From Terriglobia bacterium (GTDB taxonomy: Bacteria; Acidobacteriota; Terriglobia; 20CM-2-55-15), in the NCBI GenBank assembly GCA_963664115.2, contig CAXWPJ010000005.1, positions 32,001 through 96,000 of the forward strand: 64,000 nucleotides of DNA. Reading direction: 5' to 3'. Made by a program: the position numbers and the translations under genes. How positions within the stretch are numbered: the first letter of the stretch is position 1; each line of letters begins with the position of its first letter. Positions 5,483-27,019 of the stretch are shown one piece after another. The notes beneath the pieces were generated by a model that was given only the letters and a program-made list of their open reading frames with translations, ran no database searches and had not been told where the DNA came from.

Positions 5483-5648
5483 GTTGCAGCTCCGGATTCC
5501 ATTGTTTCAGCGTGTGTCGAAACGAACCACGGAAACCTGCTACAAGATACGAAATGCGGGGTTTAGAAGCAAACGAAGAGAAATGATTCCCTTGGATGTT
5601 GAGAATCGGGCGAAAACGGAAATTCTCAAGGTCCGCGAAGATGATTTC

Positions 5649-7651
5649 GTAGGGTCGAGCACTGGTGCGGTAACCCGTAGGCCACTCCTTGGCTGTATCC
5701 GGCGTTTCCGCCTTCGTGCCCGTTTAGGAGTGGCCGTAGCTCCGTTTCCAGCGCCCGCCACTTCGCACGCAGCGTGCGGATTTCCCGCACTACGCGCTCC
5801 TGCACACTTCGCCTCAAGGGTTATGAGACCTGTCGAGTGAAAGCGACTATGCAGAATGGCAGGAATAGGACACACGGTAGGCATTGAACAACCCCACCGT
5901 CCCATACAGCCAAGCTGCACTCCACCGCTTCCATCCGAAACCGCGACGCTGACTGGCTCGGGCCCGGTGGGACCGGATCTTCTTTTCAACCCAGGCGCGA
6001 ATGAACTGGAAGCATCCGCTGGAGTGACCAAACGCAAAGTAACGCACCCACCCGCGCAGGATCGGATTGATCTGCTCGATCACCCGATGGAGCGGCTGGG
6101 ACTGCGTACGCTTGAATATCTGATTGAGTCGACGGAGCAACGCGGTCCGCTTTGCTAACTTCGGCGTCCGCAATGCCATCCATCGTCCCCGGCGACTACG
6201 AACGCGCCGGAACTCAAAGCCGAGAAATCCAAAGCTCTCTCCCCGCGTCAGGTCCACCCGTCGGCTCTTCTCCGCATTCACTTCCACCTGAATCTTCGCC
6301 AACTCTTCCCGAAGTCGCTTCTCGACAACCTGCCGAAGCCACTGATACCGCGGATGCGCATCCACCAGGACCACCATGTCATCGGCATACCTGGCGTACT
6401 CGATACACTCCCGCTGCCGGTTCCGGGTAACTTGCTTAGCCCGCTCTAACATCCGATCGACATCATTGAGATAGATGTTACTGAGCAGCGGCGAAATCAC
6501 CCCACCTTGCGGCACACCCTGCTTCCCTGACGCCTTCAGCATCCATTTCAGGAGTCCAAGCACCTCCGGATCGCGGACTCTCTCGGCGACTTTCGCTAAA
6601 ACGATGGGGTGTTTCACCGTGTCGAAGTAGCGTCGCAGATCGAGATCGATCACGTCGGTCTTACCCTCAACGATGGCTCTGGAAACGCGCCCGATGGCAG
6701 CGTGTGCGGTCTTCTTCGGTCGATAGCCGAAGGATCCGGGTTGAAAGTCTGCTTCAAAGATTGGTTCCAGGATCAGCTTCAATGCACCCTGAACCACCCG
6801 GTCCCGGATCGATGGGATCGAAAGCATCCGTTGCTTGCCCCCCTCCTTGGGTATCCCCACCTTCCGGAGCCGTCCGGGTCGATATCTACGTTCGATCAGC
6901 TCCTCTCGAAGCTGGTCGAGAAACCCTTCCACGCCTGCGGCCTCAACGGCGTCAAACGTTACCCCATCGATTCCCGGGGCACCGTCGTTGGCCTTTGCCA
7001 ACCGGTACGCTTCCTGAAGCGTTTCTCGCTTTACCACGTGGATATACAACCCCCAAAAGCGCCAGGCCGGTTCGGCCTTCGCCTTGACGTATAGTCGTCG
7101 CCTCAGGTCTTGCAGACTAATGGGCGCATTTGTCATTTCACCCCTGCCTCCCGTCTTGGTTTCGACCTCATGTACAGCAGGGCCCCTTGGCTCCACGGGC
7201 GTTACTCCGCTTCATCGCTACTACGGACCCGGCCGCCACCGTCTCGTCTGCTCCCGACTTTCCGGTTGTGCCGGTTATACGATCGCTCCTGCTCCACCGA
7301 TTTCTCGATGGGACGAGGACGGTTTCTCCAGTTGCTCGGCATGTCCTTGTCACCGTGCTGCCCCTAATCACCCCGCCGGAGTGACAAGCCGCTTCGGTCA
7401 GATTGCGACATATCATGCTGCCTTCGCCCGTCCCAAGAAGGCTCGGCCTCCGGATCTACTCATTTCGAGGCCACCTCTAGGTTCACTTGCGTTGCGGCCC
7501 GGTGACTCACTCACCATCCTTTCTGATGGCTTTGTCGATCGGCTTCATCCGCTTCGTTTCCTCCACGGATGCGACCCAAGTTACAGAGTCTCTGACTCTT
7601 ACTCTGGTGGGGCTCTATCCCACTGAACATGCCAGCCTTAGCTGGACGCAC
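5649..7651 (-). mobile_element. Group II intron
   Basis: 5' end GTGCG at 7651, 3' end ...CGACCCTAC at 5649, domain V GAGCGCGTAGTGCGGGAAATCCGCACGCTGCGTGCG near 5765-5800, encodes an RT. Confidence 0.93.
5847..7136 (-). CDS. ltrA: Group II intron reverse transcriptase/maturase, no endonuclease domain
   Basis: APGIDG, PSIRDRVVQ, GVPQGGVISPLLSNIYL, YADD, NPILRGW maturase motif. Confidence 0.93.
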   Translation of the reverse strand: MTNAPISLQDLRRRLYVKAKAEPAWRFWGLYIHVVKRETLQEAYRLAKANDGAPGIDGVTFDAVEAAGVEGFLDQLREELIERRYRPGRLRKVGIPKEGGKQRMLSIPSIRDRVVQGALKLILEPIFEADFQPGSFGYRPKKTAHAAIGRVSRAIVEGKTDVIDLDLRRYFDTVKHPIVLAKVAERVRDPEVLGLLKWMLKASGKQGVPQGGVISPLLSNIYLNDVDRMLERAKQVTRNRQRECIEYARYADDMVVLVDAHPRYQWLRQVVEKRLREELAKIQVEVNAEKSRRVDLTRGESFGFLGFEFRRVRSRRGRWMALRTPKLAKRTALLRRLNQIFKRTQSQPLHRVIEQINPILRGWVRYFAFGHSSGCFQFIRAWVEKKIRSHRARASQRRGFGWKRWSAAWLYGTVGLFNAYRVSYSCHSA

Positions 7652-7777
7652 TCAGGACTTGAGAATGGATTTCAGGGCACCGGCACCCGTTCCTTCAGTT
7701 CTTCAAACCAGTTAAGGACGATGTTGATTTGGGGAGAGGCCGCTAAGTCCGTTTGGCCTTCAGGTAACGCCACTAGA

Positions 7778-15743: not shown

Positions 15744-15993
15744 CTACACCGTAACAAAGTTGGACGGAAGTGAGCCTCGAAAATCTTCGCAAATTCAACT
15801 ACAGGCATGATTGATAAGCAAGAAAGTTGTCAACTCGCTTTTCTTGGGTGATTCTCAACGTCCGAGAAGATGATTTATTGATGGTATGGACTCCTCTTTG
15901 ATGACTGAGTCGGCATCGAAGTGCCAAAGTCATTTTGAGCCTCGCAATAAAGCGGGCGAAACACGTGTACGTGTGAACAAAAAGGAGTCCGAG

Positions 15994-17028
15994 ATGAAGA
16001 ATAGAACGATAGCAGTGGATCTGGCAAAGAATGTTTTTCAAATTGGTGTTTCAGATCGCCCCGGGCATGTAGAGAAAACCTATCGTTTAAGTCGGGCAAA
16101 GTTTCTGGGGTTCTTTGCGAACCAGGAGCTGGCGACCGTGGTGATGGAAGCCTGCGGATCCGCCCATTACTGGGGTCGGAAGATCCGGGAACTGGGACAC
16201 ACGGTCGTTCTGATCTCGCCGCAGTATGTGACGCCCTACGTCAGGCGCAACAAGACCGACCGTACGGATGTGAAAGGATTGTTGGAAGCCTATCGTGACA
16301 GCGATATTCATCCAGTGCCGGTCAAAACCCTGGCCCAACAGCAACTGACCTCATTGCATCGAATCCGTTCGGCGTGGATGCGAACCCGAACCGCACGGAT
16401 CAATACGGTGCGGGGGTTGTTACGGGAGTTTGGCTACGTGATCCCGACCGGAGCGGATCATCTGGTGCCGGGGGTAATGGAGCTGATCGAAGATGCAGAT
16501 GTCGTCATCCCCAGTGTCGTTCGGGAGATGTTTCACCAGGTGTGTGGCGAGATCCGTGAATTGGAATCTCGCATGCGATCGGTGGAACAAGAGTTGAAGA
16601 CGCTGGCTCGGCAGATGCCTGAGGTCGCGCGTCTGACGTCGATTCCCGGCATCGGCCTGTTAACGGCAACGGCAATGGTGGGGTTTGTTGGAAACATCAA
16701 ACGATTCCGAACGTCCCGCCATTTTGCCAGTTATCTGGGACTCACACCCCGGGAACATTCCAGTGGCAACCAGCGACGCATGGGCCGGATCAGTAAGCAA
16801 GGCGATCGTTACCTCCGGATGCTGTTGGTTCATGGGGGCCGTTCCCTGTTGTGGAGTGCCCATCGAGAGGGCGCCACACCGACACCTCTCCAGCAATGGG
16901 GTCTCCAGAAACACGAGTTCCGCGGACACAACAAGGCAATCGTTGCACTGGCCAACAAGTTGGCGCGTCGCGTGTGGGCGGTTTGGAACCGTGACTGTGA
17001 CCATCAGGCCCGGTATCAGGCGGCCTGA
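15994..17028 (+). CDS. IS110/IS1111 DEDD recombinase
   Basis: IAVDLAKNVFQ, MEACG, NKTDRTD, SIPGIG, GLTPREHSSG, VALANKLAR. Confidence 0.93.
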   Translation: MKNRTIAVDLAKNVFQIGVSDRPGHVEKTYRLSRAKFLGFFANQELATVVMEACGSAHYWGRKIRELGHTVVLISPQYVTPYVRRNKTDRTDVKGLLEAYRDSDIHPVPVKTLAQQQLTSLHRIRSAWMRTRTARINTVRGLLREFGYVIPTGADHLVPGVMELIEDADVVIPSVVREMFHQVCGEIRELESRMRSVEQELKTLARQMPEVARLTSIPGIGLLTATAMVGFVGNIKRFRTSRHFASYLGLTPREHSSGNQRRMGRISKQGDRYLRMLLVHGGRSLLWSAHREGATPTPLQQWGLQKHEFRGHNKAIVALANKLARRVWAVWNRDCDHQARYQAA

Positions 17029-17039
17029 CCCGAAACAGT

Positions 17040-17300
17040 CGGAATATCTTTTCAGCGAGCTGCGATGAGGTTCGAGATGATGGCGTACCGGTCAGACCGG
17101 CGCGGGGCAACGCCGACAAGTCCTTTGGCCCTTAGAGGCCGTTATTTTATCGGTTGGCTCCCCGCGCGCAAATTTCCATCATGGCCTGGAACAATACAGT
17201 TCCACTTTTGAGGCCGAAGATACGGGTGCAGTCGACTAGCTACTCACCTCGTAACTTCTAGTCAGTCCTGCTGAATGCATTTTGCCGAAGAAAGCTGACG
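17040..17300 (+). ncRNA. Putative bridge/seek RNA of the IS1111 element
   Basis: Two GGCC-closed internal loops; one holds CAAGTCCT and TTTATCG (target matches), the other CCATCAT and AGATA (IS end matches); boundaries approximate. Confidence 0.7.
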
Positions 17301-17355
17301 GGAGAGCTGCGCCTACTTGACAGAGGAGTCCAGATACAGGACTTGACCTCGAAAA

Positions 17356-20010: not shown

Positions 20011-20097
20011 GAAAAACTCTGCAAAGGATACTAAGGCAGGAAGTTAGGCGCTATTAAATTCTCAAGTCCTGAGAAACGACATTCTCGGACCTTGAGA
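20011..20097 (-). repeat. Left 87-bp inverted repeat including 38-bp site copy 4 (20060-20097)
   Basis: 86/87 identical to the reverse complement of 21232-21318; site TCTCAAGTCCTGAGAAACGACATTCTCGGACCTTGAGA. Confidence 0.95.
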
Positions 20098-20188
20098 CTT
20101 TGATTGGCAGCTCGACACAGCACGGCCGTATATAAGGCTCTCTAACTCTCTTAAGAATGTGTGGCTTCGCCTATTTTCCGGTGAATGG

Positions 20189-21139
20189 CTATGCGCCTTC
20201 CAGACCCAACCGATCATTTACTGCATGACGCAGTTTCTGTTTGCAGCCCAGGTAGCGTTCCGTCGTCAACACTGAGGAATGACCCAGCAGGAACTGAATC
20301 TGCTCAATCTCGCCCCCGGCCTGGTAGCACAACCGAGCGCAGGTCCGACGCAGATCGTGTGGGGCAAGTTGGCTGATCTCCGATCGCTTTGCAACTTGCT
20401 TGATAATTCGCCAGACGACTTTTCCAGACAGACCGTCACCCCAGACACCTCCATAACGGTTCACTCTGCGAAAAATTCTTCCAGCACTAATTCCGGCCGA
20501 CCGTGTCCAGTTGTCCAATGCAGCTTTGACCCAGTCCGGCATTGGCACGGTTCTAACGCGTCGACCTTTGCCGATAAGATCCGCAATGATCCAGTGGTCT
20601 TCCCGGACCTGCAAATTCTCGACTCGCAGATCTACCAACTCAGATCGTCTTAAACCACATCCGAGGAGTACGGCAACGATCGCGCGATCTCGAAGGCCCC
20701 GGAGGTCGTCAGACTTGAAGCCAGTTAATAAGGTCCGCCCTTGCTCGGCCGTGAGCCAGTTGCCTATGATTCGTCCCTTTGATTTTGCTCCCTTGACATG
20801 CTGGATTCCCGCTGCCAACTCGGGACTCAGGAGTCCGCAATCCGAAGCCTCATGCGCCAAACGGCGAACAGCAGCCAGGTGCACATTGATGGTCGAAGCG
20901 GCGAGGTTTCTTTCCTTCAGATAGGTTTTGTATCGTCGAACAACAGTCCGGTTGAAAGCAAGGCGGGGCTCTGAACAATACCATCGTATGAATTCGTCAA
21001 TTGCTCGTCGATATGATCTTTGTGAACTTTCTGACGCCAGTGAAGCCAAGACCGCGGCCCTGGATTGTTCAAGGTCTGGCAGCTTGAGGGTCGTCTTCAT
21101 CCGTGACTTTTTCCGCTTCTTATCCGTTTCTCTTTTCAT
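20189..21139 (-). CDS. Tyrosine recombinase/integrase
   Basis: SAM-like N-terminus (WYCSEPRLAFNRTVV); catalytic GLRRSE, K in GKG, HDLRR, LGH, TERY. Confidence 0.93.
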   Translation of the reverse strand: MKRETDKKRKKSRMKTTLKLPDLEQSRAAVLASLASESSQRSYRRAIDEFIRWYCSEPRLAFNRTVVRRYKTYLKERNLAASTINVHLAAVRRLAHEASDCGLLSPELAAGIQHVKGAKSKGRIIGNWLTAEQGRTLLTGFKSDDLRGLRDRAIVAVLLGCGLRRSELVDLRVENLQVREDHWIIADLIGKGRRVRTVPMPDWVKAALDNWTRSAGISAGRIFRRVNRYGGVWGDGLSGKVVWRIIKQVAKRSEISQLAPHDLRRTCARLCYQAGGEIEQIQFLLGHSSVLTTERYLGCKQKLRHAVNDRLGLEGA

Positions 21140-21231
21140 AGTCGTGCCTCCATTTCAAATTGAACAAGGGAGGCAGATTTTCTGGAAAACAAGGCAAAAC
21201 ACTGAAATAGAGGGCTTGTCACGCCGGCGAT

Positions 21232-21318
21232 TCTCAAGGTCCGAGAATGTCGTTTCTCAGGACTTGAGAATTTAATAGCGCCTAAGTTCCTGCCTTAGTA
21301 TCCTTTGCAGAGTTTTTC
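21232..21318 (+). repeat. Right 87-bp inverted repeat including 38-bp site copy 5 (21232-21269)
   Basis: Site is the exact reverse complement of 20060-20097. Confidence 0.95.
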
Positions 21319-24146: not shown

Positions 24147-24938
24147 GGCATTGTCAGGTTATGTCCCCAGCGTGCAGACTGACGGGATGAAGACGCGACG
24201 ATCCCGCTACATCAGGCACCGATTTCCTCCAGAGATTATCAGCCATGCTGTCTGGCTCTACTACCGATTCAGTCTGAGTTTCCGGAATGTCGAGGATCTG
24301 CTCGCTGAGCGCGGCGTGAACGTGACCTACGAATCGATCCGCCAGTGGTCCGTCAAGTTCGGAGCTCAGTATGCGCGTCGATTGAAACGACGCCAGGGGC
24401 GTCTCGGTGACACATGGCACCTGGACGAGGTCTTCGTCACGATTAACGGTGAAAGGCAATATCTCTGGCGTGCCGTGGATCAAGACGGTGATGTGATCGA
24501 TATTTTTGTTACAGCCCCGTCGGGATGGGCGTGCGGCGCGGAGATTCTTTCGGAAGCTGTTAAAGCATCAGGGAAAGGAACCATTCCGTCTCGTGACCGA
24601 CAAGCTGGGCAGCTACCGTGTCGCACATCGCGAACTCACGCCCCTGATCACCCATGATTCCCGCCAATATGCGAACAATTGGGCCGAGGTGTCACACCAG
24701 CCAACGCGACAACGCGAGCGACAAATGCGATGCTTCAAGTCGCCGGATCAGGCTCAGCGCTTCTTGCACGTTCACGGAGTCGTTCAGAATCTCTTTAGAC
24801 TGGCACGACACCGACTCAGGTCGGCTCACTATCGAATGTTGCGCACACGATCCTTCTCGACGTGGGCAGCCGTAACCACAGCGTGAGGTTTGCCTTCCCG
24901 GTCTTTTTCTGCCTTGCGCCAGCTAATTTCACAGTACC
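24147..24938 (+). mobile_element. IS6-family element, transposase frameshifted near 24508
   Basis: RHRFPPEIISHAVWLYYRFSLSFR, WHLDEVFV, TDKLGSY, NNWAEVSHQP; IR GGCATTGTCAGGTTA / TAATTTCACAGTACC. Confidence 0.85.
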
Positions 24939-26302: not shown

Positions 26303-26340
26303 TCCCAAGTCCCGATAAATCATCTTCTCGGACGTTGAGA
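26303..26340. repeat. 38-bp site copy 6
   Basis: TCCCAAGTCCCGATAAATCATCTTCTCGGACGTTGAGA. Confidence 0.9.
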
Positions 26341-26981: not shown

Positions 26982-27019
26982 GGTCAAGTCCTGATAAATC
27001 ATCTTCGCGGAAGTTGAGA
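26982..27019. repeat. 38-bp site copy 7
   Basis: GGTCAAGTCCTGATAAATCATCTTCGCGGAAGTTGAGA. Confidence 0.9.

Follow-up and report, generated by a model that had tools for sequence, protein, structure and literature searches.

A class F group II intron at a fixed base of a multicopy 38-bp repeat in a Terriglobia genome

Homing to a defined target is the prevalent specificity of bacterial group II introns outside class C, and bacterial introns that carry no ORF usually rely on the intron-encoded proteins (IEPs) of related introns (PMC4424553). RmInt1 and RmInt2 of Sinorhizobium meliloti, both with class D IEPs, home without an endonuclease to multicopy targets in mobile DNA, using the exon-binding sites EBS1, EBS2 and EBS3; the target is ISRm2011-2 for RmInt1 and the inverted repeat of ISRm17 for RmInt2, and these systems tolerate EBS2 mismatches and allow ORF-less RNA to be complemented in trans (PMC4615759). 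In integrons, IIC-attC introns and IS1111-attC elements insert in the bottom strand of attC, opposite to the cassette genes (PMC3001079), and for the introns the attC hairpin stands in for IBS2 (PMC7923331). Group IIC introns in general are expected to have no EBS2 and an EBS1 of 3-4 bp. Integron arrays also hold IIB introns, i.e., UHB.I2 and H.ha.F1/F2, which are of CL1 or class E and sit at attC in the sense of the cassettes, with poor flank conservation (Sonbol and Siam 2021, PMC7923331). Class F (g2-g5) introns are described as ~2.0 kb long, with IIB-type exon recognition and an RT-X IEP of ~430 aa that lacks an endonuclease (PMC3552965, PMC8919778), and their hosts in Table S2 of PMC3552965 are transposases or "non-coding sequence", never a cassette recombination site.

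The intron that concerns us lies in a window of 64,000 nucleotides (the whole stretch of DNA that was analysed) from a Terriglobia bacterium with a genome of 4.89 Mb (G000). It is a complete group II intron of 2003 nt on the minus strand (7651..5649), with IIB-type RNA and a class F IEP, as judged from its ends, an Rfam match, a tree and the reference list. The ends read GTGCG...CCCTAC, in agreement with GUGYG...AY, the Rfam family RF02003 (group-II-D1D4-4) matches at 7625-7487 with 109 bits, and the remaining marks of a group II intron, i.e., the domain I motif, the domain V triad, the bulged A of domain VI and an RT/maturase ORF, are all present. The ORF (5847..7136, minus strand, ATG at 7136) encodes a protein of 429 aa with a YADD motif and no internal stops, whose domains are RVT_1 and GIIM only, which bears out the statement of a first-pass annotation of this DNA that the IEP has no endonuclease domain. 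The same annotation correctly gave domain V (5765..5797, minus strand; AC bulge in the folded RNA) a CGC triad, but erred in calling it full length: the canonical domain V has 34 nt and this one has 33, one short. In domain VI (5649..5763, minus strand) the A that bulges is at 5655, with 7 nt between it and the intron's 3' terminus. Contigs from four sequencing runs in four studies, one of which may be the source of the assembly, bridge the 3' junction with the identical flank, and an assembly artefact is therefore unlikely; among the run contigs aligned at the 5' end, none had another flank. In RNA runs, the share of the intron was never above 0.06 in any run.

Based on its sequence, the IEP is assigned to class F (g2-g5) and not to class C. 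In a quick tree it joins the IEP of the pNK6b plasmid intron (68% identity) in a clade with 97% SH-aLRT support, the tree having left out L008 and one G000 row, having a wrong ORF in row L002 and having references without g4, g5, basal-F and class E. The pNK6b intron was classed as F(g2-g5) by Miura 2022 (PMC8919778), and class E was dropped for the window IEP on account of this listing of its clade partner. Identity was 47% to B.th.I3 (g2), 37% to Ni.ha.I1 (g3), 32-35% to g1 and 27% to class D, with reference IEPs from Toro and Martinez-Abarca 2013 (PMC3552965). The proposal that the element is non-IIC thus held: group IIC is ruled out by a 7-bp EBS1, a covarying EBS2 and the position of the IEP outside class C. 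Against the RT of GsI-IIC the IEP scored 191 bits; L043, a locus with a IIC-type domain V, gave 346 bits and falls outside the IEP's clade. The CGC triad, in which the window's subclade differs from described class F introns, is found in the near subclade, and more distant members sharing the 33-nt domain V have AGC, so the triad is not diagnostic of class C. A separate 58-nt likeness to the intron 5' end, on contig C2 of G000, was set aside as a remnant outside the family.

Exon recognition could be read from the RNA itself. EBS1, UUGGGAC (7430..7436, minus strand), is the loop of an Id3-type hairpin and forms five Watson-Crick pairs and two wobbles with the seven bases upstream of the junction (IBS1, 7652-7658); the delta nucleotide C is next to it at 7437 and pairs with a delta-prime G at 7472 (both minus strand). 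EBS2, UGAGUA (7457..7462, minus strand), makes five of six pairs with site bases -9 to -14 (IBS2, 7660-7665), and EBS3 is an A at 7368 (minus strand), for which T is expected at +1 (IBS3, 5648) and G is present, a mismatch. Covariation was measured in 54 genome loci and further loci of relatives, which gave 50 distinct intron-flank pairs, counting only pairs with a parsable 5' end and EBS1 hairpin. EBS1 and the upstream flank pair at 112 of 120 positions over 20 distinct hexamers (mean 52.4 and maximum 74 in 10,000 shuffles); the hairpin comparison had 12 rows, one of which (L112) had wrong coordinates. The loop after GGCCUCGA covaries with the flank and is EBS2 (run sum 81 versus 58; 0 of 5,000 shuffles), EBS3 is the base that follows the GGCGGGGU motif and covaries in 34/37, and delta pairs with delta-prime in 28 of 28 distinct loops; all of these counts include kin and hence are not independent. 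Together they establish IIB-type exon recognition, and EBS1, initially put forward as a candidate, is confirmed in identity and in its place in the hairpin loop.

Excision of the intron rejoins its flanks into a 38-bp imperfect palindrome belonging to a family of such sites. The left part (positions 1-13; 7652..7664, minus strand) and right part (positions 14-38; 5624..5648, minus strand) meet after position 13 on the intron strand, i.e., after position 25 of 38 on the + strand, exactly where the first reading had put the exon junction. The site follows, after 7 bp, the stop codon of an upstream module gene of a kinase/TolB-like family, broken by ISs, whose 3' end is at 7672..7760 (minus strand), and the intron is on the strand of that gene, i.e., in cassette sense; GC skew near the locus, a check on replication-strand bias, is weak. 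A profile search found 173 sites above 20 bits in G000 and none in the reversed control. They form 45 clusters and comprise 149 sites with a type A spacer and 24 with a type B spacer; the layout is 16-6-16, A sites are mostly co-oriented and B sites opposed, and head-to-head pairs are frequent at a spacing of 58-59 or 148 bp. Copies in the window are at 504-541, 5567-5604, 15853, 20060, 21232, 26303 and 26982. Empty ones include 26303..26340 (+ strand), which has the GTCCCGA variant that had been noted earlier, and 26982..27019 (+ strand), with a T at position 14 that would satisfy EBS3. A search of 101 related genomes with a fixed site pattern was positive in 8, all of them from two genera, with 127 matches in G000, at least 71 in G002, 33 in G003, 7 in G001 and none in G004.

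The genes between the sites behave as modules. They recur between arrays, 14 pairs having only the downstream flank in common and 8 only the upstream one, 35 of 44 read in the direction of the site, and a stop codon lies within 30 bp before 31 of 149 A sites versus 45 of 500 random positions. Nevertheless, the core of attC is missing: in 170 sites RYYYAAC was found in none, AAC and GTT together in 4 and the reverse strand gave 5. G000 does encode a true integron integrase (G000:C9:714608-715549, TIGR02249 over the cut-off); a simple pattern scan matched no attC-like core within ~5 kb of it, its distance to the nearest site is 196 kb, and no IntI was found in G003, which has 33 sites. The joint is therefore integron-like in layout, with module reuse and a direction bias, and is not attC. 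With dif the site shares a 6-bp spacer and an AA-N6-TT core, dif and pdif consisting of XerC and XerD arms around a 6-bp spacer. A Xer dif/pdif identity was rejected, as the arms differ from those of the genome's own canonical dif on C2, which is present separately with XerC/XerD. We read the 38-bp repeat, from the reuse of modules and flanks beside different neighbours, as the predicted recombination joint of mobile, reused gene modules.

The candidates in G000, G002 and G003 yielded no cognate recombinase for the site. In the window, two identical, inverted B-type sites (20060..21269) surround a tyrosine recombinase gene (20189-21139), which is also flanked by the divergent starts of kinase genes, and this segment could be invertible or a cargo module. 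Neither G002 nor G003 encodes a close match to the recombinase, and at 10 loci with its homologues no site was found within 1.5 kb. Between G000 and G003, XerC/XerD were the only clear recombinase orthologues, and the three resolvase matches in G000 are all at least 6 kb from a site. In addition, a different tyrosine recombinase gene is present six times in G000 with identical sequence (G000:C1:93031, C2:196556, C12:487092 and three more), several of which start 200-250 bp from a family site.

A search for the EBS1 hairpin that ignored flanks was positive in 2 of 35 genomes of the family and found three copies, i.e., the window intron and, in G002, of the same genus, two copies of 864 and 861 nt that lack the ORF. 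All three complete copies are at the identical base of family sites, and in G003 a 55-nt 3' remnant of the intron abuts a degenerate right half-site in register, so that four of four known copies, over three genomes, are in the site family and none is at another target. No further copies were found in 401 genomes of the class or in 4 sister-genus genomes, and in metagenomes neither the EBS1 hairpin nor the 5' junction gave a match (0 each). One-mismatch matches to the junction in 45 other genomes of the 401 were followed up at three loci, which are not intron starts.

The wider clade behaves differently. Both flanks could be compared in 38 intron-flank pairs, of which 3 agree with the site consensus at 23-25 of 25 bases; the other 35 include no site-family flank (best 12/25), their hosts being other introns (at domain V or the 5' end), IS6-type transposase genes or other motifs, and each of these homologues' targets matches its own EBS. 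Those hosted by another group II intron, at its domain V or 5' end, are L008-L010, L014, L019, L021-L025, L045, L062 and L145. In G004, ORF-less copies and full sisters (L117, L121, L125, L096) with EBS1 UUGGCUG interrupt IS6-like transposase genes in their 5' part, genes which we take to be of the IS6 family from their likeness to the window ORF at 24151. An upstream flank resembling TTTTGGCGAA is common to L015-L017, L038, L041, L050 and L057. The four copies in the family, and the 0/35 of homologues with other EBS loops, point to lineage-specific retargeting by standard pairing. The expectation that homologues would share the target thus stood for the lineage and failed for the clade: only one small lineage looks specialised, and the introns most closely related to it are directed to IS6 genes, other introns or other motifs.

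Could the copies instead descend from one old insertion, spread by module shuffling, duplication or gene conversion with no repeated homing? Occupancy is very low (1 of 173 sites in G000, 2 of at least 71 in G002), the copies are confined to one genus, the two G002 copies have ~106 bp of right flank in common and may be one event, and the window and one G002 copy have 22 nt to the left and 28 nt to the right of the junction in common. However, the modules next to the three complete insertions differ, with three linker types, the left arms of the occupied sites are two different common alleles, and the contexts targeted in G002 and G003 also occur unoccupied in G000 (C9:1127778, C11:19587). The G002 copies are also mosaic. 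In domain I they are identical to the window intron at 342 of 360 positions, whereas their ORF deletion is the one found in the G004 copies that target IS6, to which their domain IV remnants are also nearer. Due to this common deletion they did not arise from the window insertion by loss of its ORF in place, and their make-up suggests that domains were exchanged with a separate ORF-less lineage and that they were inserted separately from the window intron. No cognate IEP was found in G002 (best 41%). A shuffled single insertion is therefore, in our judgement, unlikely. That the intron is "adapted" to the family, as first suggested, is upheld as far as repeated insertion at one base goes, on a basis of just 3 to 4 insertion contexts.

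How far pairing accounts for the choice of site bears on another explanation, i.e., that the EBS set arose for some other target and the repeats were struck merely as the most numerous compatible sequences. All seven EBS1 pairs are possible at 139 of 170 sites, and family sites make up 46 of the 84 best EBS1+EBS2 matches in G000. The score of the weakest observed insertion is reached by 1,166 genome positions, 123 of them family sites, and pairing thus explains much of the choice; protein contacts or selection may add to it. An unspecialised intron would fit the family's share of compatible positions, just 11% to 55%, the imperfect pairing (the commonest allele leaves two wobbles with EBS1, EBS2 has one mismatch and EBS3 mismatches +1 in two of the three complete copies) and the ease with which EBS change among sister lineages. 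It would not fit the occurrence of all four copies, in three genomes, in this family and at no other target, nor the EBS3 letters A, G and C of the window intron and the two G002 copies, which are complementary to the T, C and G found at site position 14 (in G000 G 53%, T 25%, C 20%), a likeness noticed post hoc. We regard chance use of an abundant sequence as distinctly improbable, and retargeting to the family as the better account.

The surroundings of the insertions raise the question of whether the intron also reads a folded hairpin, a site opened by a recombinase or an opposed A/B pair, in the manner of IIC-attC. As DNA, the site forms a weak hairpin with bulges (-7.1 kcal/mol), and by inspection each of the four insertions has an opposed site across from it, whether intact, deleted or degenerate, compared to 22 of 149 A sites in G000; the partner in the window (5567..5604, + strand) is degenerate, is 19 bp past the target and scores 5.7 bits, below the threshold. 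The comparison is post hoc, and at an unbiased 12-bit score, the one reached by the 22 A sites, just 2 of the 4 insertions have an opposed site. Moreover, the cut is within the would-be stem, where IBS1 and IBS2 must be unpaired, and the intron has a full EBS2 and delta-delta' pairing. Such structural reading is very improbable, and pairing with the left arm is sufficient in our preferred account. The parallel originally drawn with the attC parasites was also too close, given that the site fails the attC core and that recognition by EBS1/EBS2 and the cassette-sense orientation are unlike IIC-attC.

Other elements break the same sites. An IS110-family element (15879..17336, + strand) with subterminal inverted repeats, a trait by which we take it to be of IS1111 type, interrupts another copy after + strand position 26, one base from the intron cut, as had been reported; a mechanistic role for this offset found no support. 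Six of seven 5' junctions of this element in G000 are in family sites, all six with T at position 14. A related IS110-family element is in the other site arm, at the mirror position of the window IS1111 (L106 on G002:C2; G000:C1:103737), and at least three further repeated elements break the site at fixed positions near the spacer in G000 (e.g., G000:C2:319210, C12:547170, C9:941393, C10:419021, C2:755290 and others). Elsewhere in the window, 640-990 and 1289-1654 contain scrambled and tandemly duplicated pieces in a small ORF, with a 183-bp exact repeat, possibly an assembly error. A bolder reading would make all this an old, abundant and undescribed non-integron cassette system with its own guild of parasites (the class F intron, the ORF-less form derived from it, IS1111 and two or more further types of IS) and an intron lineage tuned to it: EBS3 alleles would track position 14, domain I swaps between full and ORF-less introns would spread the retargeting, and insertion would favour opposed A/B pairs as possible working recombination centres. 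We offer this tentatively, as a possibility with the odds clearly against it.

The observations to be explained are the anatomy and class of the intron, the identity of its EBS, its strand asymmetry and the fixed base in three complete junctions and one remnant. It is probable that they reflect an intact class F intron whose EBS loops match the left arm of a joint with ~170 copies and which likely spreads by endonuclease-free retrohoming. From established group II biology (PMC4615759), the spliced lariat and RT would pair EBS2 and EBS1 with bases -14 to -1, and the lariat would reverse-splice into DNA that is briefly single-stranded, likely as a replication fork passes, with reverse transcription next. 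An ancestor with another EBS set would have been retargeted to this abundant intergenic repeat, in parallel with sister lineages that turned to IS6 genes or other introns; the ORF-less copies would be mobilised in trans, and each insertion, by splitting one arm of a site, would likely block recombination at that joint.

The closest mechanistic match among the systems described in the cited texts is RmInt2; RmInt1 and RmInt2 differ in their class D IEPs, and the window's target is one arm of a module joint in ~170 copies. With the IIC-attC introns and IS1111-attC (PMC3001079, PMC7923331), there is the common feature of an intron and an IS1111-type element that parasitise joints after stop codons, but the window intron is not of class C, has an EBS2 and is in cassette sense, and its site lacks the AAC/GTT core and linkage to IntI. 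UHB.I2 and H.ha.F1/F2 are alike in being non-IIC and cassette-sense at a joint, whereas the window intron is of class F, uses a non-attC site and is at a fixed base in several copies. In the literature covered, mostly papers outside subscription, neither the 38-bp site nor a group II intron that homes to a non-attC cassette joint was found to be described. The mechanism is thus a textbook one and the target is new, a small class F lineage on an undescribed cassette joint.

Cassette joints would appear to draw group II introns repeatedly, here by a second route, programmable base pairing without integron parts. The intron also lends independent support to the 38-bp repeat as a functional recombination joint, and its relatives form a natural class F series with covarying EBS1, EBS2, EBS3 and targets that should be useful for working out the rules of class F homing.
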